Source: Tubulanus polymorphus (lineage: Eukaryota > Animalia > Nemertea). Taken from it: a DNA stretch of 64,000 nt. A model generated the notes under the pieces. The model had not been told where the DNA came from. It searched no databases and worked only from the letters and a program-made list of their open reading frames with translations. Shown one piece after another: positions 3,401 through 63,040 of the stretch. Position 1 is the first letter of the stretch; every line of letters begins with the position of its first letter. Where the stretch lies: positions 22,130,345 through 22,194,344 of the forward strand of contig NC_134028.1 of assembly GCF_964204645.1 (NCBI RefSeq), written 5' to 3'. The translations under genes were made by a program, and so were the position numbers.

Positions 3401-6400
3401 ACTTTCGATTTGAACAGTTTACCGTGCGTGAAAAAAACTACTGAAACATTTTTCTTGAATCAGGTAATTCAAACGTATCCACTCACGGTGAGCATGTCTA
3501 CACGCAATTTACCCACGTGGTATGACGTCACGAGTAACTGGTCATATTAGGTCTTCATTTTTGGTGGTAAATCTACCGGGCGTTTGTCCGAGCGATTAGG
3601 GTCACATACAGCTATGCAACCACATCACAGAGGACCTAACTGTGAATTCTTCTATTAGTTTTTATTATTCATTTGATTAGTTATTTAGATGCTTCCTCGA
3701 TATGAATCAATGTATTTGTATTGTTTATTGCCAACCGATAAAACTGCGCTCGAATTTGACGTCGCAAGGTCGACCTACGCCCGGCTTTAAGCAATCGTCG
3801 CGTTGCGTCACAAGTGGGGGCGTAAGTCGGTTGCGACGAGGTTGTCAGCGACTGTGTGCGACTAGTTGCTCCCAGTCGCAAGAGCGCGTAGATCGGTTAC
3901 GACGCTCGCGTCGCGTCGCAGAAAGTAGAACATGTGCGACTCATTGCGACTGGCGTCGCTGGCAGTCGCAAGGCAGCGTAGGTCGGTTGGTCGTTGCGAC
4001 GCGATCGTCGCTGGCAGTCGCAGTGAGTCGCGTCGCAGTGAGTCGCAAGCCGTCGCAAGGCCGACCTACGCCCGGCTTAAGGTTGCAAGAATAGGGTTGC
4101 GATATCTTATCATTGACGTATACCCCACATACAAAAGAAAAGAAAGAAGGGACCGAAACGTTTCCTTAAGATCACCATCATCATCATTTTTCCTTCGAAC
4201 CGGTATATAAGATTTGTTGAAAAAAACTAGAAATACCTACTTCGACGTTTCGACTATATCTTAAAAGTAACCTTCAGTTATAGCACGGACGCTGGGAGTG
4301 TCTTTTATCAAGGTTATAACGAGGGGTAAAATCTTTCTATTTTCAGACTAGTGAAATAGATGTCGAATTTCAAATTGAATACGAGTAAGTGTCATTAAAC
4401 ACATAAACCGTCAGCGCGACGACACGGAACCCAGAGACAATTTCAATGGTCAATGTAGGAATGATAGAAATTGTCAGATATTGATTTTCTTTGTAGTAAC
4501 AATCCGTCGCTTAGATACAGCCTGTGTCTGCATCCTAGTGAGAAGAAATTCAAAGAAACAAGAAGAACAAAATGTATGAAAGCGATGCAGAAATTGCTGG
4601 GATCAAAAGGACCGACCAATACAAGACAGGTATTTGAAATACAAAACTCTGAAATGTTTAGTAGTTATATATGCTAATGATATTGACTTCTGCAACATGT
4701 TACATATGAATATATAGTTTGTAATTACTTGCATGATAAATCGGTACACATTCATCCCCCTCCCCATCCCTCCCTCTCTCCACTCTCTCCCCTCTCATCT
4801 CTATCCCTCTCCCCTCTCTCCACTCTCTCCCTCTCCTCACTCTCCTCATTCTCACGCTATCCCTAATCGATGCGCGTTGCTGATGATTTACGCTTGGTTA
4901 TCTTATTTTCGATTTAGACCCCGACGATTGGAATCCTCGGATCTGGCGGTGGTTTCAGAGCTATGGTCGCTATGAGCGGAGTTATTAAAGCTCTCAAAGA
5001 ATCCGGTGTACTCGACTGCGCCATGTATATGTCCGGACTATCGGGCTCATCATGGTAAGTAGGTGCTTCTGGGATTTAGTGTTAATTTCCGATCACCTAT
5101 CCTCGATTGAATGTCTTTCCCATCCCAAACGGTTAGCGCTAATAAGGTACCAAGGTACCAAAGTATACCAATAAGGTCTCTCTCATCACTTTCGCAAGCA
5201 TTTCGTTAGCCATCAATTTTCCTGTGGTCAATTTCGCGACTCCTAAAAAACACTCGAAAATAGTAAATATACTGTGGTTAGATCGTTCGACTCTGGGGAG
5301 CAAGGTCTTGGGTCCGAACCCGTACATTATCGAATTGTCCTCGGGCAAGACACTTATCCTCATCGCCTCTCTCCCCACCCAGGAGTAAAATAGGAACCTG
5401 GTCTGATAGATGACTCCTTAGTCCTAGCAGCTGCTCGGATGTTACTTCTCCCCAGGGAGAGCTGGTCTGATAAATGGTCAGAGTCATAGGCTGTGGGTAA
5501 TGATGGAAAGCGCCGTTGAACATCGTATCATAGTGAAAAGGGCGCTATCAAAATTAAATGACTTATGGTTTACTTACTTACTGTGATGCTATTTCACAGG
5601 TGTATCTCCACCTTGTATTCGCATCCTGATTGGCCGAACCTGGATATCGCTGATTTCCAAGACGAAATGAAAAACAACATCGACTCGAGTTTATTTTATC
5701 TGTTGTCGCCGCAGAGTATTTACCGTTACATAGACAGCATCGTTAGCAAACGGAAAAACGGCCAACCGGTCAGCTTTACGGACTTCTTCGGTCATCTGGT
5801 CGGCGAGACACTTCTCAGAGGGGTAAGTAGTAGGATTAGATGCCAGGGAAGGAAGTTAGAGACAGACATAGATGTAGAAGAGAAGAGGGAGACGGAGAGA
5901 GGGACGGAGAGGGAGAGGGAGATGGAGAGGGAGATGGAGATGGAGAGGGAGACGGAGACGGAGACGGAGAGGGAGAGGGAGAGGGAGAGGGAGAGGGAGA
6001 GGGAGAGGGAGAGGGAGACGGAGGGGGAGACGGAGAGGGAGAGGGAGGGGGAGGCGGAGAGAGGGAGACGGAGAGGGAGAGGGGGAGGGAGAGGGAGGCG
6101 GAGAGGGAGACGGAGACGGAGACGGAGAGGGAGAGTTCTTCTAACATATCATCTATTAGCAGAACCTTACTCAGTTCATCCTGTCTTGTGATGATATATC
6201 AAAATTAGTATTTTATAATGACGAGTGACGAGAATTTCTCATTTCGTAGAGAATGGATTCGAAATTGTCGCATCAACAAGCCAAAATCAACGATGGAGAC
6301 GCACCGTGTCCATTATACACATGTGTTCACGTGAAGAAAGACGTCTCAGCCCAAGTGTTCCATGGTAAAACCAAAACCTTCGTGAAATATATTTTGTCTT

Positions 6401-9400: not shown

Positions 9401-9958
9401 GAAATGATGGGATATACCGAGTCTATAAAAATTGTTTCCAATTTGTTTTCTATTTCATTAGGAGTCAAACGAGAAACTCAAGAAGAAAAAGACTTCGCAG
9501 ATTTCAGCATCTTCGACGATCCGAATACGCCTTATTCGACGTTCAATTTCACCTACCCCCATCGCGCTTTCGAACAGCTCAGCAAACTGGCCGAATTCAA
9601 CACTCTCCTGCACATAGACGACATCAAACAGTGCATGGCCGAACTGGTGGAAAAACGCGTGCAAAGCCCGCCGAATATTCTCTTCTCGTTGAGCAGTTTG
9701 AAGATGATCGAAATGCGCAATCGACGAATGCGGGAAAGAATGGGCAAAATGTTGCAAAACGTCCGCGATCGCAAGAAATCGGCAGCGACCGACTCGAAAA
9801 ACGACGACGACGACGAAGATAGCGACGTATTCTACGAAGCGGCGTCCGAGATCTTGTCCGGACACTCTCCGACTAAATCGCACGTATCAGTGAACTCGAC
9901 TACGGCTGGCAATGGCCGTCGGAAAACGGATTATTATTCGACTTCTTCAGAGATCTAG
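479..9958 (+). CDS. PLA2G4A: Cytosolic phospholipase A2 (group IVA-like; C2 domain + catalytic domain), 18 coding exons
   Basis: Phase-consistent GT-AG exons: 479-532, 1500-1582, 2161-2185, 2359-2437, 2676-2822, 3348-3463, 4347-4384, 4497-4629, 4918-5054, 5600-5822, 6250-6364, 6519-6656, 6792-6884, 7017-7173, 7657-7778, 7977-8158, 8577-8763, 9462-9958. Hallmarks: FDPYQ, DEPDPYV...NPVWNETF (C2 domain), ILGSGGGFRAM (catalytic Arg), GLSGSSW (catalytic Ser), STLYSHPDWP, EWVEFSPYEIG, GRAGVIHNFMRGL, VVDAGLTFNSPYPLLLRPQRGV (catalytic Asp), PYSTFNFTY. The first two exons are less certain than the rest. Confidence 0.95.
1269..1385. mobile_element. MITE with G(A/G)(C/T)CCAGTTCCACAG terminal inverted repeats and CAG/CTG target (PIF/Harbinger-like); other copies ~570-650, 7335-7442, 14321-14407
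   Basis: TIR GACCCAGTTCCACAG / CTGTGGAACTGGACC flanked by CAG on both sides. The internal tgagtta...taactc palindromes recur in the other copies. Confidence 0.75.
3761..4081. mobile_element. GC-rich non-autonomous DNA-transposon-like element with internal GTCGCA/TGCGAC repeats
   Basis: A ~30-bp motif GTCGCAAGG(T/C)CGACCTACGCCCGGCTT(T)AAG occurs at 3761-3791 and 4052-4081, with many GTCGC/GCGAC subrepeats between. Lies in a cPLA2 intron. Confidence 0.5.
4755..4855. repeat. CT-rich low-complexity tract (intronic)
   Basis: Runs of ccctctctc. Confidence 0.8.
5271..5570 (+). mobile_element. tRNA-derived SINE with conserved core domain and LINE-type tail
   Basis: tRNA-like head (GTGGTTAGA...GGGTCCGAACCCG), then the widespread SINE core TGTCCTCGGGCAAGACACTTATCCTC...CCTCTCTCCCCACCCAGGAGTAAAATAGGAACC, and a tail AAAGCGCC...GAAAAGGGCGCTATCAAAAT resembling L2/CR1-type 3' ends. 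Confidence 0.7.
5879..6134. repeat. (GAGAGG/GAGACG)n purine microsatellite in a cPLA2 intron
   Basis: Hexamer repeat; source of the spurious ER/GE/PS-repeat ORFs. Confidence 0.95.
7194..7331. mobile_element. MITE with GGGCCAGTTGC TIRs and CAG/CTG target; related copies 14411-14495, ~35887-36009, ~56949-57074
   Basis: CAG-GGGCCAGTTGCACAGTC ... GACTATGCAACCGGCCC-CAG; directly abuts the CCAGTTCCACAG-type MITE at 7335. Confidence 0.7.
9342..9388 (-). ncRNA. Degenerate minimal type I hammerhead ribozyme motif (CUGAAGA family)
   Basis: Minus strand reads ATTC-CTGAAGA-TGAC-agttaggatattt-GTC-AAAAC-GTC-GAAT. Stem I ATTC/GAAT and stem II GAC/GTC are present, but GAAA is mutated to AAAA in this copy (intact GAAACGTC in copies at ~1093-1122, ~4241-4277, ~53296-53331). 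Confidence 0.55.
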
Positions 9959-10483
9959 TAATAAAAAAACATTTTCGCGCGTAGAAAATGTTGTAATATA
10001 GTCGCTACTAAGCATGTGTGTAGTAGGTTATCGCATTTTTCCAAAGTTTCTATTTTTCAAATCTTCGGTCTTTTCTTATCGTGTATATGATTACTTTTAC
10101 CGAAAATACTAAGGAGGATGTATTTTTGATTTTACTTGTAATAAATTTACAGCGTTGTTACAAATACATTGTATCAAGAGGCTTCTTGTCTCTATAGAGT
10201 GGACTATTGCGTTTACCTCTGTACAAACTGAAATGCATGACAATCTACTGTCTGTCTGTCTGTCAGCCTGCTTGCATGCCTACCTGCCTGTCGGTCTGTC
10301 TGTCTGTCCATCCGTCCCGTCCGTCTGTCGTCTGTCTGTCGTGTCGACAAGTCTTTCCGTCAACCAGTTTTTGGGTCCCATAACAGAGTATAAGATTAAA
10401 TGAACTCAATGTGTATTCAGTGACTGCTCGATTAACATTTATTCATGTTTCTAAATGTTTAGCATATTCTCATATTTCTAAAT

Positions 10484-10729
10484 CTAAACCTCCGCATTGC
10501 GCCCTGCTATCACGGCCGTAAGCGCTGCATGCAACAAGGGTTTTCTGATTTTTCCCCAGACTCTCTTGAACCATCCTCGTTTCATCAGTTTAACGGTTCG
10601 TCTGGCCTCCATCAACTCCAGCGGGTCGTGTCCAGCAGTCTCAGCGTCTCGAAGAGCTCATTCTATTTGATCACCAGTAACGGCGACCACCAGTAAAACA
10701 CACAATACAAAAACTGCCGACAATTTCAT
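10484..10729 (-). pseudogene. Secreted cationic amphipathic peptide (antimicrobial peptide/toxin-type) prepropeptide with one in-frame TGA
   Basis: Translation: MKLSAVFVLCVLLVVAVTG-DQIE*ALRDAETAGHDPLELMEARRTVKLMKR-GWFKRVWGKIRKPLLHAALTAVIA-GR-NAEV*. Signal peptide, acidic pro-region, dibasic KR site and Gly-Arg amidation signal. TGA at 10660-10658. Splice acceptor at 10746-10747, GTAAGT donor at 11377, TATATAAA at 11454-11447, AATAAA at 10443-10438. Confidence 0.75.
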
Positions 10730-10785
10730 TTTACCGGGGATTCTTCTGTAATCAATGAATTACAGGCCATTATTAAAAAAATACA

Positions 10786-10950
10786 GTTAAGTTAAGTTAA
10801 GTTAAGTTTATTTTGCATAATAGATTGATACAAAGATATGTAATTATACAATACGATACATTATGAAAATATAATAACAATCAATCATTGTAGCAATAGA
10901 TTATGCGAGGAAACAGGAAAAGCCAAAGTTGGCTTAAACAGTAAACCCAT
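10786..10950 (-). mobile_element. LINE (CR1/L2-like) 3'-end relic with (TTAAC)n tail in the peptide-gene intron
   Basis: (GTTAA)5 tract directly adjacent to TTTATT (AATAAA on minus), the usual layout of a microsatellite-tailed LINE 3' end. Confidence 0.4.
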
Positions 10951-11446
10951 ACCGCCAATCCCGTCTGAAGCCGGGTTTATTGCCGAGAACGGAACAGTTA
11001 ATTTGTCTTGGAACTATAGTCAAAATCAACCTATAAAATAACGCCATAGCCTATACTCACCCAAAATCAAAATCACCCATATGGGCGCGGAGTTGATCAG
11101 GGGTTGATTCGTTTGTACTGATATTAGCTCACTGAATGATGGATGTCAACAATCACCAAGTCATTAGTTACCAAACATGTAGATGTATTTATTCCCCGTA
11201 GAATTGAATTTGCCAATCTTACAATAAACGATTCTAGGTAGATATAGTCTTGCAAAGTGCCCAAACATTCTATTTTCTATAATTTGAATGAGGGAATATT
11301 ACACTTTCTACTATTTCCCCTACGGTAAGAAAAAAGTACAGTAAAACTAAAAACAAAGAACATATATCTCTACTTACGAAATCTTTCACTGTGAAGCAAA
11401 TCGAAATGCTTTCGATGAGAGTTAAATGTTTCGATTTTCATCTCTG

Positions 11447-11454
11447 TTTATATA
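11447..11454 (-). promoter_or_regulatory. TATA box of the minus-strand peptide gene
   Basis: TATATAAA on the minus strand, ~70 bp upstream of a canonical GTAAGTA donor (11377). This implies a ~40-nt non-coding first exon. Confidence 0.55.
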
Positions 11455-12586
11455 CAACAGCCTTAATTCGTTTCTGATAGAGGAGCTTTCGGACAAAATA
11501 CCGCATAGAAGTAACAAAATCCCGAACTCAAAACAGTTGTTTGTTATAGACTTAGGATCCCATTAAACATGTGTCAATTGAACTGTTGTTATTCAACAAA
11601 GTATAGTCTCTCAGAATCATATCATCCTAGCAGCTTTTGAACATCAAATCTGATTTAATGATTCGCCCTAAAATACTGAAATCCTTTGAGCGCGAGCGTT
11701 ACGTCTCATACTGTAGTTTTGTGATGTGAATGAATAGATTTTGCAGGTGTCGTTGACTGGAGATTATCATGGTTTTTCCAGAACGGTCTATAGACAAATG
11801 ACGGGGCTTAAATTCGCCCATCTGTCCTTTCAAATCTGTTTACGGATTGGCCACAAATTTTTTACTCCTTATCACGTGAGTCCAGATATTTTGGGAAATT
11901 TTCAAGATGGCTTCAAATGGATTGTCTCATCCTCGCTTGCCAGGGGTCCGGTATCACTCCCGAACTCGCTTCCACCAGCGGAACAGCTTTAGCGTAGTGG
12001 GTTCGAATCCCTTGACGGTTGAAGATGGGATTGTCTCGGCGGGTTGATAAACCGCCTCAATCGAATCATTTTTTTCTTCAATGTTTTTGGCTTTTCTCCC
12101 AATGACGAGATCCTGCGAGGCCATGTGGTCCGTGGATACAGGTGACCTCAAACGAGTTTCAGAGATCCATGTGCGGCACATTAGTCGTGGCGACGGCTCT
12201 TACGACGAGTCGGCCGCGCAGTCCGGCCCAGCTAGTCACGGCACCGGCGGCACACTGCAGGCCGGCTCGTAGTTGAAGTTTGGGGGCGAATAGTAACTTA
12301 GATCCGCCAGCTTTCAAGCAACTTAAATATTGGAGGATCTTGGAGGATTGGAGGAACACGGAAACAAATATACTTTCAAATATATTGAATTGAGTTGCCT
12401 TCGGTAAGCGAGGTTTGAATTGAATTGTTCAGTCAACATTAACCTTTTTGAACCCGAAAGTAATTTGTTATCTTCGACAAAATGTAGATTTTCTTTCTTT
12501 TTTTGGTGAATAAAACCACGTTTTCCAGACGATTGAGCGCGACGACATCCCGCCTGATACCGTTAATGGTTTCTCTCGGGTTCTAA

Positions 12587-15500
12587 ATGGATTTTTATGA
12601 AGGAATAGATGCTGCTGGTGTAATCATGATGGATGAAAATTACTGGTATGAAAACGGTAAGAAAAGAACTGGAAGAACTGTCGTCAGCAGTCAAATGCCA
12701 GCAGAATCGAGAAATGAATGAGACATTTTTGCACTGTCACTTTCTGAATTTGAGCTTTGATGATATAATTACGGATAAATGCACCAGTAATGTGTTACGT
12801 CCTACCCCTCCTCCGATCACCCGCCATTTTTACGGCACTTTCTTAGTCTCTCTAGTCTGGATTGGAATCATTAAACCAAATGATATCTGACCGCACCATC
12901 TATCATCAGTGTTGAGTCTTTTACATGTGCTCTAAACAGAGTTTTGTGATAAACCAGGGAATTCATTGAATGATCGATTTTTACCATGGCAGATTCTAGT
13001 CAGTAACCTGTCTGTGGTTTAGTTTCACGATCGGATATTTTCACAAACCACAGTCAGGAATGGGAAGGTCATTTTTCAATGAAGTCTTCGTCAGCCAATT
13101 CGAGTGACGAGTAATTTGCCTGGCATTTCATTGTCTCTTAAGATAACCGTCTAATTTTTGTTGTAATCGACGCACAACAGATTCGTAGTTTGTCTGATAC
13201 CTATAACACCTCACCTGACGATCTTAATCCATGTGCAAATCGGCCGTAAAGTGAGAGTAAATTTCCGTCGAGTCAACAGCTGCCATTTTGCAAATTACTG
13301 GAGGTGAAACTCACGAAGCGAAACAACGAAATTGAAAAAATTAAGAAATCAACACTTATTCACATTTTTCTTTTACCAGAATTTATTATTTCATTATTTT
13401 TTATGGAAAACACGAAGATTTGAATCAAAGTTGGAAAACCATCAAAATTGAAAATTGTCGTTTCGTCTTGGAAGTTTTATATAAATCATTGTAGGTCCCC
13501 TTGCCTTATCATGCCACACATGCAATACAGAGAAATGGCGGCCAATGGCGAAATTTGTGGAGAAATTAATTAATTTCTGAAAATAATGTTGATTAATCAC
13601 TCGAAACATACATAAAATTGGATTATTTCGAAAGGTACCTGTGTTAGTTTGTGAATTAAGCCATTAATTGTGGACTGAAGTGAATAGAAAGTATATTTTT
13701 GAAGTGTTACTTTTTTCAACCGTGTTTTGGCCCTTGTCATCCCTAACGTTGGTATAAGCTCATCCGATTATAAAAAGCTTACCACCAACGATTAGGTAAC
13801 TAACTAGGCAGATTCATGCATTAACATACATCATTTCTCCTAAGAAGGGATGTATTTTGGCCTACAATAACATATACAATAAATGTATAATAAAAGCAGT
13901 TTTCAGGTCCAATTTTGAGCCTTATATACATTTTGGAAAGGTCCACCTCTGACCTAAACCTTGTTTTGATATAAAACGCTTTTGAATAATGAATTGATTA
14001 GATGGCCCTATAACCAGTATGAATGGCGTTCTAGAATTATAATGATGTTTAGTAATTGAAATCTATTCTATTTTCTTCGTTTATCTATTGATTGAAGAAC
14101 TGAAGCTGGCAGCCGAACTCGGGAAGACCTTACTAGAACGCAACAAAGAGCTCGAAAACCAACTAAACCTCGCTCATCAACTCAGCCATGACCGCTATAC
14201 AGAAATCACCGTAAGACATCAGCCTCGAGATGTTGTTGTTTTGACCGGGGCAAAATAATCCTAGTTGCGAACATCCAGAAATTTGTCGGTTAATTACTGT
14301 GGTTTCTCATTGTTACTCAAAACCCAGTTCCACAGTTGTGAGTTAAGATTTGACTCTGATAATGAACTAATTTTAACTCCTCTAAATAACGATTGTGGAA
14401 CTGGATCCTGGGTTGCAGTTGCTTAAAAGCGATAGATAACTGGCAGATAAATACCATAGAAACAATGAACTTTCAAAATTTCGAGCAACTGACCCCTGGG
14501 TGAATATTACCTCCGAGTATATAGAGACTTTGATACCCAGTCCACCTATGGTTCAACAGGGTACAGAACACTGGTGTTGTGATTCCTAATGAATTCAGGG
14601 TCCCTACAACTCCTTGAATCCTTGAAAACTCCTTGATTTTTGAACATATTTTTCAAGGTCCTTGAAAATCCTTTAATTTTGAGAAATATCCATAAACTCC
14701 TTGAAACTCCTTAAATTCTGGGAAAGTCCTATTAAAAATTTTCAAAAGGTCCTTTTCAGAAGACAGTGTATTCTATTATTCTTCATTGTGTGACTTGTGA
14801 GTGAAAGTTGTTTCACTTTGAGATTTAAAACATGTAAAACCAAAACGGCACACACAACAACTGATCAAAATTTGAGAAAAACTTGGTTTTTTTTTCGAAT
14901 TTTCGACTTTTTTTCCTTATATATGACCGCGAAAACCTCCTTGAATTTTGAAAATTACTCCTTGAAAATTCCTTGAATTCTGGATACCAGGAATTGTTGG
15001 AACCTTGGAATTAAAAAGTCTATCTCATTCAGATTTCTCTGGACTGACCAGAGCCGGTCGGTTTCAATCTGGTCATATATTTCAGAATTTTCAGTGAAAT
15101 TATAAAGAAAAATAGAATCCAACTCATAATGACGATGAGGGTGTGATGAAATTGATTAGTAATTTTGGTCATTGTTTTCACGATAGTTTTTACGCCAACA
15201 AGTCGACACGCTACGAGAGATGAATCAATCGAAAATGAGAATCTACGAAGAGATCGACAGAAATTCGCAGGAAACCGAAAAACTCAACAAGACACTGGAA
15301 AGAGAAAATAAATCCGATAGAGAAAAAATCAAAAGGTATTGGTTTGAATACTGAATAATTTGTAGTCCGATAAACTGCAGTCCAGTTACTGACTAAACTG
15401 CAGTCAGATTACTGACTAAACCATAGTCCAGTTACTGTTTGAACCACAGTCTTGCTACTGCACAGTTCAGTTTGTAACTAAACCATACTCAAGTTACTGA

Positions 15501-16836
15501 CTAAGCCAGTCCATTCACTGACTAAAACACAGTCTTGTTACTGCCTTAACCACAGTCCAGTCACTGAATAAAACATAGTTCCGTTACTGACTAAACCTTA
15601 GTCCAGTTACTGACTAAACCATAGTCTGGTTACTGACTAAATCCCAGTCCGGTTACTGACACTTAACAGTACAGTCCAGTTACTGACTAAACCTTACCAC
15701 AATCTAGTTAATGGCTAAACCACGGTCCGGTTACTGGCTAAACTGCAGTCCAATGACTTTCCAGGAGACCCTGTTGAAATATTATTTGCGAAACAGTACC
15801 ACCTAGTCTACATGTATGTCCATGGAACTAGCTTCTGTTGTTCACATTGATGGATGGAACCGCAGCTGTATCTAAAGAATTTTTCCATGTCTTGTTTTTT
15901 CGCAGGTTGCAAGAAGCGGTTGAATCTGTGGAATCTCGGTGTCAGGATCTACAAACAGAAATCGACCAACTACAAAAAGAGAAACGCGCCGAGTCGAAAA
16001 ACGAGAAGTTAGCGTCAAAGCGAATGTCGTCGAGTTTCCCGTCGCTGCACGACATCGGCGATTTCGATCGGTTGCTCGGCAACAACGGCAACAATAACCA
16101 GTCGATGAATTTACGAGAAGTCGAGATCGTTCGTCTGCGGGAAAATCTGCGAAACGTTCGCGCGCGTCTCGCGGTGGACGAGCACCGGCGCGACGAGCTG
16201 CAAGCACAACTCGAGCTCGCCGAGCAACTCAATAAACAACTCACCGGTGAACTGGCGGCGTCGCGTGACGACTCGAAGCGACTCCGGGTCGTCGACGCCG
16301 AGATGAAAGACTTGGAGCTGAGAGTCGCGCGCGCCGAGAACAACAAACTGTGCGAGAAATGCCGCACGCGTCTGGAGAACGTCGACACGGAGCCGGCACT
16401 GCCGATATCCGACCTGGAACACGACATAAACGAGATCCGACACGGGCAGGTTTTGAAAATGGACAACGGCGGAAGCGTGTTTGGCAGCAAGGAGTCGCTG
16501 CGCACGGCCGGCATCGACACGTACGACTTCGAGTCGCAGTTCGACATCAATCTGCTGTCGGAACTCGACCAGCAGTATCACCGGCTCGTGCAGAAATACG
16601 AGTCGTTGATCGAGGCGAAGCGTCGCAGTCTGCACGTCGACGGCGCCGCGTCGCCGACGACGAAGAAATCGCAGGAGGTGCAGACGTTCGCGGCGACCTC
16701 GACGTCCGAGGCCGAGTACAAGAAGATTTTCGAGGAGATTTTCTCGACTTTGCGACGGTCGATTAGTTACGACGACGTGACGAGTCGCGGAGCCGCCGCA
16801 ACGAGCGTCGGTAAACACGATCTGATGAAGTCGTAG
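12587..16836 (+). CDS. CDR2L: Cerebellar degeneration-related protein 2 (CDR2/CDR2L)-like coiled-coil protein
   Basis: Exons 12587-12656, 14098-14210, 15187-15335, 15906-16836 are in consistent phase. MDFYEGIDAAGVIMMDENYWYEN-ELKLAAELGKTLLERNKELE (CC1-box AAELG motif), FLRQQVDTLREMNQSKMRIYEEID, NLLSELDQQYHRLVQKYESL and C-terminal EYKKIFEEIFSTL match CDR2-family blocks. CDR2 vs CDR2L cannot be resolved. Confidence 0.85.
14596..15007. mobile_element. MITE with CAGGGT-type TIRs, (TCCTTGAA) subterminal repeats and 5-bp TSD
   Basis: CAGGGTCCCTACAACTCC ... GGAATTGTTGGAACCTTG flanked by GAATT at 14591-14595 and 15008-15012. Confidence 0.7.
15365..15755. repeat. ~23-24-bp minisatellite (CCAGTTACTGACTAAACCATAGT) in CDR2-like intron
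   Basis: About 15 degenerate tandem units. Confidence 0.85.
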
Positions 16837-22418: not shown

Positions 22419-24222
22419 TCAATCACAGCTACCATCTTTCCAGCCATGCAGCCATCGTTCGTCTACTTTACTACAGTTGAATTCCGGTTTTCCCAGTTTC
22501 CGACTGACTTCGTTGTGCGCGCGACAAAACCATTGCGATAAATTGTGCCTGGACGTCGTATCGGGCGGTTCTCTCGTCAAACTGAAAAACGCCGTAAGAA
22601 ATAAATCATTACCGAGTGCATTACAGACAAGCAGGGATCATTCGAACCTGATGGTATTGCCAGACCCTGCCACGGTACACAGCTCAGGGTCCGCTTTCTT
22701 GAAAAAGTTTAAGCTTGAATTAGATAAGTTTGAACTGTTGTCCTCATTGAAAACGTGTAGCTTTAACAAATAGAAATTAGACCAAAAATTTGAGTTAAGC
22801 TTTTTCGTGAAATGGGCTCCGGGGATATTTTTGTTGGTATACTGATTAGGTGACTTAGTTTATTTCTTACCTCTTCCTAAAGTCTTCAGCGCATATATCA
22901 CAAGGGTAGAACTTCGAAAATAGATCGATAAACTGTTTCATCTCCGACTGCTGATTGGTCGATGGTTTATCGGGGAAGTACGCCGCCATTGTGTGCAGGA
23001 AAGACCACGTACTCTTACCCAAACTATTCACATCTAATGGGCATTCTTTAGCTGGCTGAAATACAATGAATTTCACAGTTCACAAACTGACAAGTGGCTT
23101 TACAACTATCTTATTTATAAATGAAGAAATCCCACACTTCGAATTTAAGATTATACAATCAAATTTATTATTACGAAACCACAACGTTTCGGCTGTTGAA
23201 TGATTAGATTTGGGTTAACGTCACTATGTGTCACTCTGTTATCACCATCCTCTTCAGTCCACTTCACTTAGTTACATAATTTGTTTTTACTCTGAACTGT
23301 TTAGAATTGCTGTGGTTTCTACGGTACCCCTTGATGCTTTATTGCTTGGTCTGTTTATTTCTAGTTTTGACACACTGCTTCTATTTTAGATCCTGTGAGT
23401 TTATATGCTTGGTTAGGCCTGCGTTTTTTCTGGTCATTCCACCTGATGATGGCTGTTAGTCAACACCCGAAACGTTGTGGTTTCGTAATAATAAATTTGA
23501 TCGTATAAATCTTAAATTCGAAGTGTGGGATTTCTTCATTTATCTACAGTTTACACAGATTATAGTGTTTATTCGACAACTATCTTATTCATCATACAAA
23601 ATATCAGGATTTGAGTAGCCTAAGGCAAGCAGCAGGGGCTTGCTACTATGGCTTCAGTGTCCCTATTCAAACATAGGGCCTATCTAAAAAAAAGCTGAGG
23701 GTTCAAAATCAAAGATTTATAGCAGTATCTTTATTTTAAACATCTTTATTTACCACCAACGATTAGGTAACTAACTACCCTTAGTTTTGAATGATGATAA
23801 ATACCCTTCATGCATCGCAATACCTCCAAAGGTAGGCTATAGATCTACCTTTGATAAATAAATGCCATATGAAATTAACTCCCCAGGCTAAAGAGAAACA
23901 ACTTCCTAGGACAGATAAGACAAGTTAGAAAGTAAAGTATTCAACTTATAAGTTAATAAGCCTAGGTTCCTTTGGGTGCTAGATAATTACTGCCTGGCAT
24001 CGACTCGACCCTTCCCAGCTAGATTGCAGCTACCTTTAAATTAAATTTAGATATATCCTGGAAATGTTTAGTAGTAGTTGTCGAGTTGCTGTTGCTGCGT
24101 CCAGGTCCAGCCCCCTCCTGCTGTTGACTTTTTTGTTGATTTGATTTTGACCAGGTTTTGAAGTCAGTGCAAGCTCTGCACGGTTTCTGTCGACGCCCGT
24201 AATAATCTTCGGGCTCCGTCAT
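22419..24222 (-). CDS. GFER: FAD-linked sulfhydryl oxidase ERV1/ALR (augmenter of liver regeneration)
   Basis: Exons 24222-24034, 23055-22871, 22581-22419. N-terminal [12 protein letters not shown] shuttle motif, [36 protein letters not shown] (redox CxxC), WFCRAHNEV...[24 protein letters not shown]. Confidence 0.95.
23116..23575 (+). mobile_element. Penelope-like element relic: pseudo-LTR with inverted partial copy and 14-bp TSD
   Basis: ~80-bp inverted arms 23117-23199 and 23460-23543. Direct repeat ACAACTATCTTATT at 23102-23115 and 23576-23589. Contains a hammerhead motif. A second, decayed copy lies at ~25350-25660. Confidence 0.75.
23439..23480 (+). ncRNA. Minimal type I hammerhead ribozyme
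   Basis: CCAC-CTGATGA-T-GGCTGTT-AGTC-AACACCC-GAAAC-GTT-GTGG: stem I CCAC/GTGG, intact CUGAUGA and GAAA cores, stem II with one C-C mismatch, palindromic ACGT in place of stem III, GUU cleavage triplet. Confidence 0.8.
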
Positions 24223-24819
24223 TTTTTTAAATAATAAACAGATCAACCAGATTTTCGGGCAGATTTTCTTTTATGGTTGCTAAAAAACTTCAAAAATTCT
24301 TCATTCACGCATGCACCGCATTACATCGCTCGACGACCTTGAACATGACGATCTCGAACAGTAAAACGTCAATGACGCGTCGCAACCGATACACTATTGA
24401 AATAAGATTCGAATCCTGAATTCCGAAAGACAACTACTGAATAGATAAACCATATCAATCAATCAATCGCATACAAAACAAATATGTGCGGTAGATGTAT
24501 ACGGTGCTTCAGTTTTTCTATTTGAAGAGATCCATTTCCGCGTAGATATAGACAAACCGAAGAAGCTGCAACGGCGACCCATTCGCCGCCTATCAGATTA
24601 CCCTATCATTAAAATAGACTGCCAGAGGCTTGATTCATTATAATGTACGTAATCAAACTTATTGTCGATAGCAATATTTTTTCATCGGGTGCGCGATGTC
24701 CACTAATTCTTGTTTGCCTAAAACATTAGCCCGTTTAATCCGCAACAAATCTCCCCCGACATGGATAGGGCCTATAGCTAAATCAGCAAAAGATGTTCTC
24801 CGAGTAATCAATACCTACG

Positions 24820-25230
<411 letters not shown>

Positions 25231-44581: not shown

Positions 44582-45385
44582 TCTGAAAATAAAGTAGTGC
44601 GGCTCATGATTCGACGATGCATTTCCTAAAAGCGTCTCCTCATCCGCGCAGTAAAGCACGCGTGCATTAGTCGAAAATGATATATTCCGAAATGCGAATG
44701 AATTCAATTCGGTAAAGATGCCGATTTTTGACTGAAATTGATGCCTTTTTATTGACCGCGTTCACCCGTTCTCTTCGCCAGATATAAACCAATGTCGCTA
44801 TTGTTCTGAAAGCGCCTCGGTTAGAAAATCTAATGCGGATGATAGACTTTTGTCTAAAATTTCTCTATTCATTTTGCGACGCAACGAATATTAAAAAAGA
44901 CCAGTTTCTCGGAAATATCGACTGCGCAGCAGCGATGGCTTTTGTTGGTGTTTTTTTTATCTTTCTTTTAGTTTCGCGTAATTAATGAGGACTTTTTGTC
45001 CGACAGTGTCAGATCCCGCTTGTGGCAAGCGACGATCCACCGGGTGTCGCTGGTGTGCATTCGGTCAAAGATATCGGATTTTTTCTCAGATTCGTTTTCT
45101 AATATTTGATAACTTTTCAAATTCTACAGATGGTGAAACGTCGCGCAATATACGAACCTCAACAATGAATCAGAGTTTATCAAGATATACGATTTTCCTG
45201 ATACCCCTATAAAACCCTAAACCCATCTAAACCCCAACCCTCTTCCATAGTGTGATGTTTTATGTGGGAGACTACAACTCTAGTATTTACATTTTAACTT
45301 CTGTAATATATGTATCTATTTAATTATGTGTCTACAAATAAGAGTATTATACTATGTTATAATTCCAATGTAAATAAAGATTAGT

Positions 45386-46068
<683 letters not shown>

Positions 46069-47644
46069 AAGTTTATTGAAATTAACCGAACTTAAATTTG
46101 GTTGTCCTAGGGAATTAGGATTGTATCTACACTCCAAACATAACAAAAAGACTATATAAGATACACATACAATATCTACAAAACAACAGAAAATTTTTCT
46201 TGACAACATGTAGCAAAGTTATCAACAATATGTCATGCATTATCTACAATATTGAAGGGATCATATTGATTCGTACGCGCGCCATCTAGTGGGATAGCTG
46301 GGGTACCGGAGTCCTCCAAGTAGAGCGAGCAGATTTTGTTGTTGTTTGTTTCGGCATCATCGTCGTCGCGACGACCGAACGCTATACGAAACACGATAGC
46401 GAAAACGACAAGATTGGCCTTTTATACGCATCGTAAATCAATAGGCGACTGTCGTGATAAATTGGAAAGTGCAGTCAGCATCATCAGCTGCAGCCGGCAT
46501 CTGCGGCATCTGCTATGCCGTTTCGTATCTAAGTGTGATCCAATTTCCACAGTCGTATAGACTCGGTCTCTTCGCCGTCGACTGTGTATAAACGCGGTAT
46601 ATCACTGAATCCATATGGTTTAATATCGTTATCTTCGATGGAGCCAACAGTTTGACAGTCGAATAATCAAATCTTCTACTTCTTAACTGATGGAAATACC
46701 GCCGTATTATACGACAATAGATCGGCACTGAACCAATTCCGCCCTCGGTAGGTAAATATGCCATAACCCGATCTCTGAATCGTCTGAAAAAGCATCTTCG
46801 CAGAATCCTTCATGTTTCTGTAGTTCCCCGAGGAGTGTTCCCCGTGTTTGCGTATATGCTAAGTCCACGGGTGTAGAATAATAAAAAAAAACGTGCGCCA
46901 GAAGAAACTGAAAAGCACGCACGTGCACACATCCTGATCAAATATATCATCTCTAGAAATAAATCTGATTTTCAGGAAATTTCAACGGCACAATAAAGCG
47001 ATGACGCCGTTCTGGTAACAGCGTTTATCGAATCACCAAGTCGATAAATTCGCTATTCGATTCCCGACAACCGATATACGGTTTTTTCCAGCCGATGCAT
47101 TGTTGGCGTGATGAAGTAAATTGGTAAGAAATTCGATCATTTGTGACGTGTATGCAAGCATGAAATTACTTTGTACACGCTTGTGGGGCATGTTGTTTAA
47201 ATAGTTCTTCGGCAGTCATCGAGCAACTATTATGTATATGGCCGGACTGTTTCCGCCGCGTAATACTAGACGCAGGGGTCCGTATGTACCACGTCTGACT
47301 CAATCAAACTCGCCGAATGCACGATGGAGCGATCGGGAGACCTTGAACTATAACCGTTTCACCGGTATATAAATACGGCAAGGACGTTGCTCTTGTTTAT
47401 GGAGTGGAGCGCGTTCGTCGGTCGATTCGTTGGAAACCGACGTTACGTCGAAAGAAACAATATTATGCATCGTGGTGCTCCGTACGACTCGGCGACTTAA
47501 AGACAATAGAAGAAATAGAACAATACAGGAACATGAACTAATATTGCCTTTTTTGTTAAAATGTTATTCGAAAAGATGTTTAGATATTTTGCTGGGCTGA
47601 GTCATTCATAGTTACTACAATGTATAGTGTTTGTCACCCGAGTT

Positions 47645-60300: not shown

Positions 60301-63040
60301 GATAGTATGGATATTGTTAATCGTGTCGCGATCGAAGAGGAAGCGACGGCCATATCCTGGTCTTTTCGATCGCGCGGACATTTCTTTGAAAATGGAGTGT
60401 ATCTGTGAAACTTGCCAAATCTATTTTGCTTATCTTATAAAAAGATAAAGGGCCGTGCGTAAAGTACGTGCGCACGTAGGGGAGGAAGGCTTTTAGAAAT
60501 CCGTGCAAAAGCGTACAGGGGGAGGGGAAGGGCGAGCTCGAAGCTTACATACTTTTCTAAGGGGAGGGTTCATGTTTATAGTGCGTACTTTGTGCACGAA
60601 ACACAATGCGATTTTTACATTTATGGGATTTCCTGGGAATTCCCCGCTCTTGATGACTTCGTCAATACATACATTGTCGCCGGAGCCCTGATGAATCCTG
60701 GTGAATTTTGCCCATTTCACATCATGGATCCTGACAGATTCACTTTTACAGGGAGGGATCAATCATAGAAGTATGTACGCAAGAGGGGGATTTGTATTAT
60801 CGCTGAAGGAAATTTCACGGAAGCACTATAAACGGAAAACCCGGGCTGAAAATAAAACGGGATTCTGATTGGCTAATAATGACATCATCTAAGTAAGCTG
60901 CACGTGTAGCTGCGCACTCGGTCTAGTGTGGCAGGGTTTCGTACCGTGTCAATCTCGATGCCATCAGGTTCGAATCCCTGCCGGGGAGGACTGCAATGAG
61001 TACCTGGCCTGGTCGATTCAATTCAATTTAATTCAATATTTATTCATCATGATAGTATGGATCGTCGTTTATTGTATCACGCTCGAAGATGAGATTGTAT
61101 CAAACGGGTATTATTCAAAGTTTCATTGATATAAATATCTTCGCTGGGGCATGTTGGAAATCATCGTGATAAACGGGTTTAATCTAACAGAAGAATCGTA
61201 CTAACGAGGTTCGACTGTATATGTCAGAGGTTATCAATTAGCCTTTGAGTCCAGCTTTATACAAAGCTTTTTATAACATCCGTTAAATAAAAACAATGAT
61301 AATAATAATCTAACGCTAGTTATTCAAAGAACTTTATATACCGAGTGTGAATCGTCGTTTCAATAAGAACGACAATAATTCAGACTAAGGGTATAAGGTT
61401 CTTTTTGCTGTTTGGACTGTAGATATCAATAAAACCTCTGATAAATCAACACTCAGCTTCTGAAGCAGGATTACACCAGAGCAAGATTGTGATTTACACG
61501 AAATTAAACGGGTGAGACCGAGTCGGATAATTGCGAGTGGGAGTTGAGTGCGACACTTCTGCTGTTTTTGGAGTTGTTTACTCTGCGACGAGTAGTGCTT
61601 CTTGCACGCGTAGCGGGGAATGTATCTCATCAATTATCACGATGAATGCTGGTAGTATTCGTATGATTTTAATTAATACATGATAAATCGGCTTATTGCG
61701 AGTGCGCGCGTTGACGACGATGATCATTGATACTAAAGCCTATGGTGCACGCGGGCGATGTTTCCGAGCATATCTCGAGCAACCACCCGATTTGATCGGC
61801 GTCGAACCAAATCGCTCGTCTTCGGTAACAGGACACGGACATTGCTCGTTGTCGAAAGGGGACGCCCGATATCAGACATTGAACATGATCGCATTCGAGC
61901 GCGCTTGTCCCGGGTTAAATTTGGTGCCAAGTGCTTGTTCGACGCGGGCCATGGTCCGACCAAAAACATAGGTTCAGGCTCCTGCCAAATTTCAGCACTG
62001 GTAAAATCATTCTGCGAAATCATTTTTCCGTCGTAATGTTGTCGCAGTATTGACACTTATTATCATACCATATGTCCCCTTCTCAAAAAATCTAAATCGA
62101 CACAAACGATAATGTACGAAAGATAATACATAATTTTGTAGTCAGTATATCGTAGTTTTCTTGTCAGTTCAGATTTGTCTTTGCAAGCGGTAACCCAAAA
62201 ACGTTTTGACGTATATTATCATATCGTGATATAGAAATGAAAGAATATGAAACTTTTGTTCTTTTTATGGACATTCAACTATATATTCGAAGACTGTATC
62301 GTAGATTTAACGATGATATCCTATCTTCATTCAGATTTACGTTAGTTGAAACGTCACCGTACGGTTTACCGGCGACTGTTAGCGTGCGAACTACGAGTGA
62401 AAGTTGGCTAGGTTTGATCTCATCCGCCACGCAGTCTATAGATATAGTATCCGATACTTGGGACCTTTCGCAGGAATCCGCGTCGACGAAACAGGTAATA
62501 TTTCCGAAGGTTACATTTTCTGTTAGGCAGCGATGAACGTTTATAACCCCTTTTTAAAGAATGCATACTTCTAACGACCGTCGAAAGAAGTAATTCACAT
62601 TCGATATGTATGGTGGCTCTGATTCGGGCCGTAACGTAAAATTCCTGGTAAAGTTCTGGCGCCCTCATTTGCATACCAGGAACTAAGCGTTATGGCCCTA
62701 ATCGTAGATATCAGCTAAATGATATAGTCAAATCCGCTTCAGTAATCCGGATCGGCTTAATCCAGACAATATTTACAGTCCATTTGTTTATTAATATATT
62801 AGAAAATTACTTTTATTCCAGATTTCCCGTGTAACCGGAATTTTTATTGGTCACAAATGATCCCGAACTACGCGCGGATTCTATACTGCATTTCGAATGA
62901 AATTGATTAGATCTATTTCTTACAGGGTGCTGATGTGGTAAAACAGTTAAATGAGGCATCGGGGACACGAGGTGTCAAAATCCGAATCCTCTTCAACGCG
63001 AAAGATGCTCAATCGTCCGACATTATACAACGGACGAACG
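51391..63040 (+). CDS. PLD3/PLD4/PLD5-family (lysosomal exonuclease-type phospholipase D) gene, 5' partial; continues beyond the window
   Basis: Exons 51391-51677, 62335-62494, 62926-63040 are in phase: basic cytosolic tail, transmembrane anchor (LISCIMASTVSLLLFLLTMLIV), then CFGPCRFTLVETSPYGL...TSESWLGLISSATQSIDIVSDTWDL...QGADVVKQL...RGVKIRIL. This parallels PLD3 CYDPC..LVESIPEGL...AWLGLL..A.SSLDIASFYWTL...QGEEVL..L...GVNVRI. HKD motifs lie outside the window; the start codon is uncertain. Confidence 0.8.
53270..53630 (-). repeat. Tandem array (~2.5-3 units) of the CUGAAGA-hammerhead family (retrozyme-like)
   Basis: GAGCTAGGTAGTTT(T/A)TTCGAC recurs at ~53282, ~53452 and ~53570; GTTGTCCTCATTATA...CATCGAT.AAAC.CTC.GAGTTCGTGT occurs twice. 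The minus strand carries GAAGATGAC...GTCGAAACGTCGAA. Confidence 0.65.
57550..57686. mobile_element. Small foldback MITE
   Basis: TACGGAAGCGTCCTGGGGAAATATCT ... AGATATGTCCCCAGGACGCTTCCGTA, with an internal hairpin ATTCCGAGTT-GCA-AACTCGGAAT. Confidence 0.7.
58990..59280 (-). mobile_element. Frameshifted LINE ORF2 C-terminal relic (CR1-group) with (AAACT)n tail
   Basis: FHFISQCPFLTDFR / KRYYRKFPSIEKFKMFM in adjacent frames resembles the 'FHF...CP....R...YY...PS..KF' ORF2 end; pentamer tail at 58990-59010. Confidence 0.55.
60805..60988 (+). repeat. B-box-containing hairpin element (tRNA/SINE-like head) with conserved upstream segment; copies 63412-63585 (+), 63275-63360 (-), short 22631-22685 (-)
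   Basis: AAGCTGC.CGTGTAGCTG.GCACTCGGTCTAGTGTGGCAGGGTTTCGTACCGTG.CAATCTCGATGCCA.CAGGTTCGAATC.CTGCCGGGG is shared between copies. Confidence 0.65.

Follow-up and report, generated by a model that had tools for sequence, protein, structure and literature searches.

The minus strand of the DNA analysed here, a 64,000-nucleotide stretch from the palaeonemertean ribbon worm Tubulanus polymorphus (hereafter the window), probably carries a disabled gene, either a null allele or a young pseudogene, that belongs to a multi-copy family of ribbon worms. From intact members of this family, secretion of a short host-defence peptide is predicted, which would be cationic, likely amidated and membrane-disrupting. 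An earlier note had described a complete frame of 82 codons at this site; that frame is not open, as codon 24 (10660-10658) is TGA, five codons past the predicted end of the signal peptide. The premature stop leaves a product of 23 residues, and because of it a secreted precursor cannot be made from the copy as assembled. At the same position, all seven contigs covering it carry a sense codon that differs by one base and does not encode Cys. The contigs belong to four runs, from at most two samples of one study, and were mapped onto positions 10300-11700; the runs cover the intron and the upstream DNA, and hence behave like DNA runs.

The motifs named in the earlier note were confirmed on the minus strand (TATA box at 11454, GTAAGT at 11377, GTGAGT at 11060, acceptor at 10746 and AATAAA at 10443), and the gene is laid out as follows:

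11447..11454, minus strand: putative TATA box, TATATAAA, read in the sequence
11378..11425, minus strand: exon 1 (5' UTR), with the 3' end set by the GTAAGT donor and X3 record 17, and the 5' end estimated at about 30 nt below the TATA box
10746..11377, minus strand: 5' UTR intron of 632 nt, GT..AG, with the donor GTAAGT at 11377 and the acceptor TTACAG ending at 10746
11061..11131, minus strand: putative optional middle exon with a GTGAGT donor at 11060, unsupported and skipped by X3 record 17
10730..10745, minus strand: 5' UTR part of exon 2, 16 nt, with A at -3 of the ATG
10729, minus strand: ATG, confirmed in the sequence
10673..10729, minus strand: predicted signal peptide, codons 1-19, judged by eye (GRAVY 2.39, Lys at position 2, small residues at -3 and -1)
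10583..10672, minus strand: pro-piece, codons 20-49, acidic in 20-42 and basic in 43-49, interrupted by the stop and in frame in other copies
10658..10660, minus strand: premature TGA, codon 24, the break in the window copy
10577..10582, minus strand: Lys-Arg (KR), predicted convertase site, invariant with the snail and nematode precursors considered below
10505..10576, minus strand: predicted mature peptide, 24 residues, net +5, with an amphipathic cationic N-half, a Pro and an uncharged hydrophobic C-half
10499..10504, minus strand: Gly-Arg (GR), predicted amidation signal; both snail units likewise end in Gly before KR
10484..10498, minus strand: four-residue tail and TAG (10486-10484)
10438..10443, minus strand: AATAAA polyadenylation signal, 40 nt 3' of the stop

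Read through codon 24, the frame agrees with its first description, with a signal-like N-terminus (1-19), an acidic pro-piece (20-42, net -6), a basic linker, KR, a 24-mer, GR and four final residues. The ORF list holds only a 42-residue ORF from Met40 in the precursor frame. A layout filter, devised only after the gene had been seen and allowing one read-through stop, retained one of the 574 ATG-started frames in the window, namely the peptide gene, and none in 30 block-shuffled windows. This favours a real, small prepropeptide gene that is organised like those of linear cationic helical defence peptides. The gene had been placed between cPLA2 and CDR2-like genes: it does lie between the two flanking frames, on the opposite strand, but the supposed last cPLA2 exon, whose frame ends at 9958, had no Pfam match. 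The next gene, on the plus strand, encodes a coiled-coil protein in exons from about 12587 to 16833 and shows a match of about 99% to Tubulanus polymorphus XP_074648533.1. Over its 312-residue last exon the identity is 99.4%, and because it is only that high, the window may represent a different haplotype from the annotated reference. Elsewhere in the window, an Erv1/Alr sulfhydryl oxidase gene lies on the minus strand at 22422-24270 (extent by eye; Pfam Evr1_Alr, E 4.6e-18 for 22870-23079), an exon resembling phospholipase D3/4 by eye, with no Pfam match, lies on the plus strand at 62210-62533, and long simple repeats (AAT-type, GA-type and GACA-type arrays) occupy 45385-46092, 5840-6200, 24782-25024 and 10240-10340.

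The proposed splice from 11378 to 10745 is borne out by one contig, X3 record 17, which is continuous from exon 1 into exon 2 and from which the intron is missing to within one base. Its path runs from exon 1 at 11397 through 18 letters into 10746; together with base 10746 these equal in length what is left of exon 1, namely 19 letters, of which 12 agree by eye, and because of this equality the join coincides with the predicted donor and acceptor, give or take one base. The contig retains some 240 nt 5' of the TATA box yet lacks the 632-nt intron. It looks like a genomic copy with a precise intron loss behind its own promoter; alternatively, this one contig may be a cDNA with a longer 5' end. 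The upstream region occurs in divergent versions across several contigs. The extra non-coding exon proposed in the earlier note fared less well, for X3 record 17 skips the middle exon (11061-11131), which moreover contains an ATG at 11080 that, if spliced in, is in frame with the main ATG at 10729 and adds 12 codons. With regard to that frame, the only indel recorded for other copies within the exon-2 UTR likewise measures 3 nt.

The contigs of all four runs carry divergent versions of the gene, in line with the suggestion of a lineage-specific family with other copies. Within sample S2, the intron is of window type in X2 record 14, which shows no differences, shortened in X4 record 24 and lacking in X3 record 17, so that this one sample contains at least three distinct versions of the gene; X1 contained four intron versions. 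Because these are more versions than two alleles allow, the family is multi-copy if each sample is one animal; contig depths were not taken as copy numbers. In other copies the intron is shortened or replaced, and 10746-10765 is kept. Inside the window intron, 10817-10960 shows a peak of summed contig depth with many short pieces and loose ends, and is probably a fragment of a dispersed repeat. By tblastn and blastn, no second copy was detected within the 64-kb window; among the listed contigs of the four runs, no single one spans a whole intact copy.

Two contigs, X2 record 10 and X4 record 24, match the window from 10765 to 10556, covering the signal, the pro-piece, KR and seven mature residues with only a 3-nt gap in the UTR, after which 105 letters are swapped for 83 others before the match rejoins in the 3' UTR. 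Defence-peptide families show this pattern, in which the signal, pro-piece and N-half are conserved and the C-half is replaced. X1 record 1 retains the mature region; three residues of the hydrophobic half are swapped in the Ala/Val/Ser manner, there is one exchange involving Thr, and one codon is deleted. X3 record 16 diverges from codon 61 on (window 10548), its loose letters resembling the window C-half out of register (by eye), and it could represent another broken copy or else carry a different C-half; it overlaps X3 record 17 by 30 nt at similar depth, and the two may be the same copy.

The differences between copies point to constraint. Excluding the codon-24 break, 7 of 14 coding differences are silent, whereas silent sites make up 25% of the frame (p=0.037, pN/pS ~0.33); the 14 were classed by hand among 40 listed difference rows, with 71 further rows outside the count. 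By region, the signal and pro-piece have 4/7 silent differences (p=0.076) and the mature region 2/6 (p=0.42). The only listed coding indel is of 3 nt, and outside the coding part one of 11 is a multiple of three, with 9 further indels and 91 pieces outside the count; indel density by itself did not reach significance (p=0.36). The family is real and probably under purifying selection.

Taking these observations together, the window copy is very likely a null allele or young pseudogene. Window letters at, for example, 10699, 10706, 10394 and 10398 differ from every X1 contig covering them, and because several nearby letters are absent from all of these contigs, a distinct haplotype in the assembly fits better than a single base error. 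The loss appears recent, because nothing else in the gene has decayed: the TATA box, splice sites, Kozak context, KR, GR and polyadenylation signal show no further damage. The same lack of decay, together with the absence of the stop from all seven contigs over codon 24, is what would be expected if the TGA were a consensus error of the assembly and the locus intact and working. We regard such an error as rather doubtful, given that the neighbouring letters point to a different haplotype, that rare variants get dropped from contigs and that nonsense copies are usual in such families (cf. myticalins, PMC5577615). Close precedents are known, in that mussel myticalin nonsense pseudogenes are 97% identical to working genes (PMC5577615) and null alleles of the antimicrobial peptide (AMP) gene Diptericin segregate in Drosophila (PMC6857651).

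A functional copy with a recoded TGA, by selenocysteine or read-through, is scarcely credible even though TGA is a recodable stop and the frame is intact beyond it, given that an Rfam search of 10200-11700 (E up to 10) returned two chance matches only and no SECIS, that just 40 nt separate the stop from AATAAA, that other copies have a non-Cys sense codon at the site and that codon 24 falls in the disposable pro-piece; nor do the bases after the TGA form a known leaky read-through context. A selenoprotein was accordingly rejected, with no SECIS in the 3' UTR and no Cys/Sec homologue at the UGA.

Judged by sequence, the read-through frame and the other copies would be secreted, cationic, amphipathic, Cys-free and precursor-released, as is typical of the linear cationic alpha-helical class. 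The 24-mer contains five Lys/Arg, with no Asp, Glu or Cys, and has Trp at mature position 2. Its two halves are equal in length. The N-half (12 residues, 52-63) bears all five positive charges and has a hydrophobic moment of 0.71 with a peak at 90-100 degrees, a value reached by 378 of 10000 shuffles, and the C-half after Pro is uncharged and strongly hydrophobic (mean 0.87). The amphipathicity holds for the N-half and not for the whole 24-mer, whose moment of 0.25 is unremarkable (reached by 2984 of 10000 shuffles). A single-sequence structure model of the Met40 ORF gave one continuous helix with no hinge (pLDDT 81.6, pTM 0.37), although helix models of this kind say little for such peptides.

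In intact copies, a two-exon mRNA would be translated into a prepropeptide of about 81 residues, which the signal peptide would route into the secretory path and in which the acidic pro-piece would mask the cationic peptide. A convertase would cleave after KR, and a cut after GR, followed by carboxypeptidase E and PAM, would yield an amidated peptide of about 24 residues. Gly-Arg is an amidation signal in a centrocin light chain (PMC4805251) and is predicted as one in myticalins (PMC5577615). The cut sites leave some ambiguity, in that GR is monobasic, a KR lies inside the peptide and an RR lies upstream. The Trp/Lys/Arg N-half would lie as an amphipathic helix on anionic membranes, and the hydrophobic C-half would insert into the membrane, as in cecropins. 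In the window copy, on the other hand, translation would halt after those 23 residues, and reinitiation at Met40 would yield a product without a signal peptide.

As to activity and tissue, we infer that an antimicrobial function is most likely, cytolytic defence second and a neuropeptide function unlikely. The intact peptides could mainly be cytolytic parts of a defensive mucus or proboscis secretion, or aid small toxins across predator tissue, a role compatible with an antimicrobial one. The strongly hydrophobic C-half fits such a role, as hydrophobicity in helical peptides often accompanies haemolysis, and so does a multi-copy family with a variable C-half; nemertean skin contains lytic peptides, with an amphipathic helix important for lysis (PMC6410017). 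However, the known nemertean peptide toxins that this review lists are larger or cystine-knot, unlike the Cys-free window peptide, and the motif is absent from the toxin tables of PMC9415933, which include Tubulanus polymorphus but only matches to known toxins. The look-alikes, moreover, come from a freshwater snail and a Panagrolaimus nematode. To our knowledge, neither the freshwater snail Bulinus nor Panagrolaimus is venomous. A mainly cytolytic role is thus conceivable but unlikely.

A neuropeptide or peptide hormone, for instance a short Trp-amide released by cleavage at the Gly-Lys that follows the second Trp, appears decidedly improbable. A signal peptide, a dibasic site and an amidation Gly are common to neuropeptide precursors, the snail and nematode matches contain repeated units, and in two contigs the match stops just past the second Trp codon. 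Yet Gly is missing from the corresponding position of the snail units, and the units are 22-27 residues long with a net charge of +3 to +6. Copy-number and C-half variation within a species is also unlike conserved neuropeptides. The motif is furthermore absent from the supplement of the nemertean neuropeptidome (PMC8557429). An antimicrobial function thus stands as the preferred reading for the intact members.

Database searches returned few relatives. A word-index search among proteins of 44-142 residues yielded three candidates of near length and no match; Pfam gave no family for the read-through precursor (E up to 1), and the downstream ORF, like the two look-alikes, drew none at E up to 10; the PDB gave no match, and the Atlas no result for the window's own precursor. 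By phmmer against 1.84 billion representatives, two unannotated proteins matched at E ~1e-4, namely KAH9489823.1 of Bulinus truncatus (160 residues) and a Panagrolaimus protein (304 residues). A three-row profile search, in which 7996 candidates were scored, found only the snail protein and two Panagrolaimus proteins (A0AC35FDZ9 and A0A914Q0T5); it found no annotated Tubulanus member, though the proteins of the species are in the database. Each look-alike begins in signal-like fashion and contains acidic spacers together with two cationic GW units, which are flanked by KR, measure 22-27 residues and have net charges of +3 to +6; snail unit 1 is identical to the window precursor at 15 of 34 residues. 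The snail and nematode precursors have two units each whereas the window precursor has one, and both snail units end in Gly before KR whereas the nematode units have no terminal Gly. The Atlas clusters nearest to the snail protein are bombinin- and dermaseptin-type frog AMP precursors, at 0.83 and 0.76, values below the reliability level of the tool. By their sequences, the two-unit precursors of Bulinus truncatus and Panagrolaimus are themselves candidates for undescribed AMPs; a literature search on Bulinus gave nothing relevant among the entries listed.

Descent and convergence are indistinguishable here, because nothing is alike beyond a short cationic helix and the sites at which it is cut. 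It is only tentatively proposed, as a possibility of low probability, that the family comprises the first linear cationic helical defence or venom peptides of Nemertea and shares descent with the KR-GW precursors of the snail and nematodes. If true, this would be an old protostome peptide family overlooked by annotation owing to its size, and turned over by duplication, nonsense loss and reverse-transcript-mediated intron loss.

No report of a linear cationic peptide from ribbon worms was found in the literature searched, the scope of which lay outside subscription papers, bioRxiv supplements and APD/DRAMP. A proteomic screen of Amphiporus gave no AMP-like sequence (PMC7460313), two AMPs predicted in Cephalothrix are among cysteine-rich peptides (PMC12846013), and a defensin-like candidate has been reported (PMC10674772). 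A 2025 review of marine invertebrate AMPs leaves nemerteans unmentioned (PMC12466427). The word 'antimicrobial' is absent from the text of PMC9415933 and the peptide motif from its supplement, and a motif search of the text and supplement of PMC10414684 gave unrelated matches only, among the matches listed. The surprise is moderate, as the kind of molecule is familiar and the window copy is broken. Nevertheless, an expanding palaeonemertean family offers a direct route to ask whether mucus defence and immunity use the same peptides, supplies natural variants of a short antibiotic scaffold, and draws attention to unannotated candidates in a snail that is a schistosome vector.

The likeness to centrocins, styelins, pleurocidins and cecropins suggested in the earlier note holds as an analogy but not as membership. 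With cecropins in the broad sense (insect PF00272, nematode cecropins/anisaxins and styelins) the peptide has in common the Trp near the N-terminus and the predicted amide, and it resembles them in its amphipathic cationic N-part and more hydrophobic C-part (PMC4874388), although cecropins have a long amphipathic N-helix and a shorter hydrophobic C-helix, and the window peptide has halves of equal length modelled as one unbroken helix. Non-insect 'cecropins' are only superficially similar to begin with (PMC4874388). It differs from them in being shorter (24 residues) and in having a long acidic pro-piece ending in KR; no PF00272 model matched, and membership of the Pfam cecropins was rejected. 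Frog-skin AMP precursors (bombinin/maximin and dermaseptin) have a layout of signal, acidic spacer, KR, cationic helix and Gly-amide. The window precursor is alike in layout, but matches no Pfam model and comes from a distant phylum, and the likeness is likely convergence. For styelins and pleurocidins, neither Pfam nor the PDB gave a match. The nemertean toxins (A-cytolysins/parborlysins and nemertides), the A-toxins included, are disulfide-bonded, whereas the mature window peptide has no Cys; nemertides are cystine knots.

With the centrocins of sea urchins the gene has in common a signal of about 20 residues, a first pro-piece of about 30 residues, a cationic chain starting with Gly-Trp, and Gly-Arg (PMC4805251). 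Centrocins are, however, disulfide-linked heavy and light chains from precursors of 119-121 residues (PMC4805251), and membership was rejected, as the window precursor lacks a light chain and a second pro-piece, contains no Cys beyond the signal peptide and has a tail of only four residues. The myticalins of mussels are likewise lophotrochozoan multigene linear cationic AMPs with a non-coding first exon, an intron just 5' of the ATG, Gly-Arg and nonsense pseudogenes (PMC5577615), but their mature peptide comes before the anionic piece, they have a second intron and they are Pro/Arg-rich (PMC5577615). Membership was rejected here too, as the anionic piece precedes the peptide in the window gene, and a non-coding first exon with an intron before the ATG is too common to show kinship. 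The family is best regarded as new within a class of molecule that is already known. It belongs to none of the named families, its precursor would work like one of the cecropin or frog-skin type, and neither this sort of molecule nor its evolution by birth and death is new in itself.
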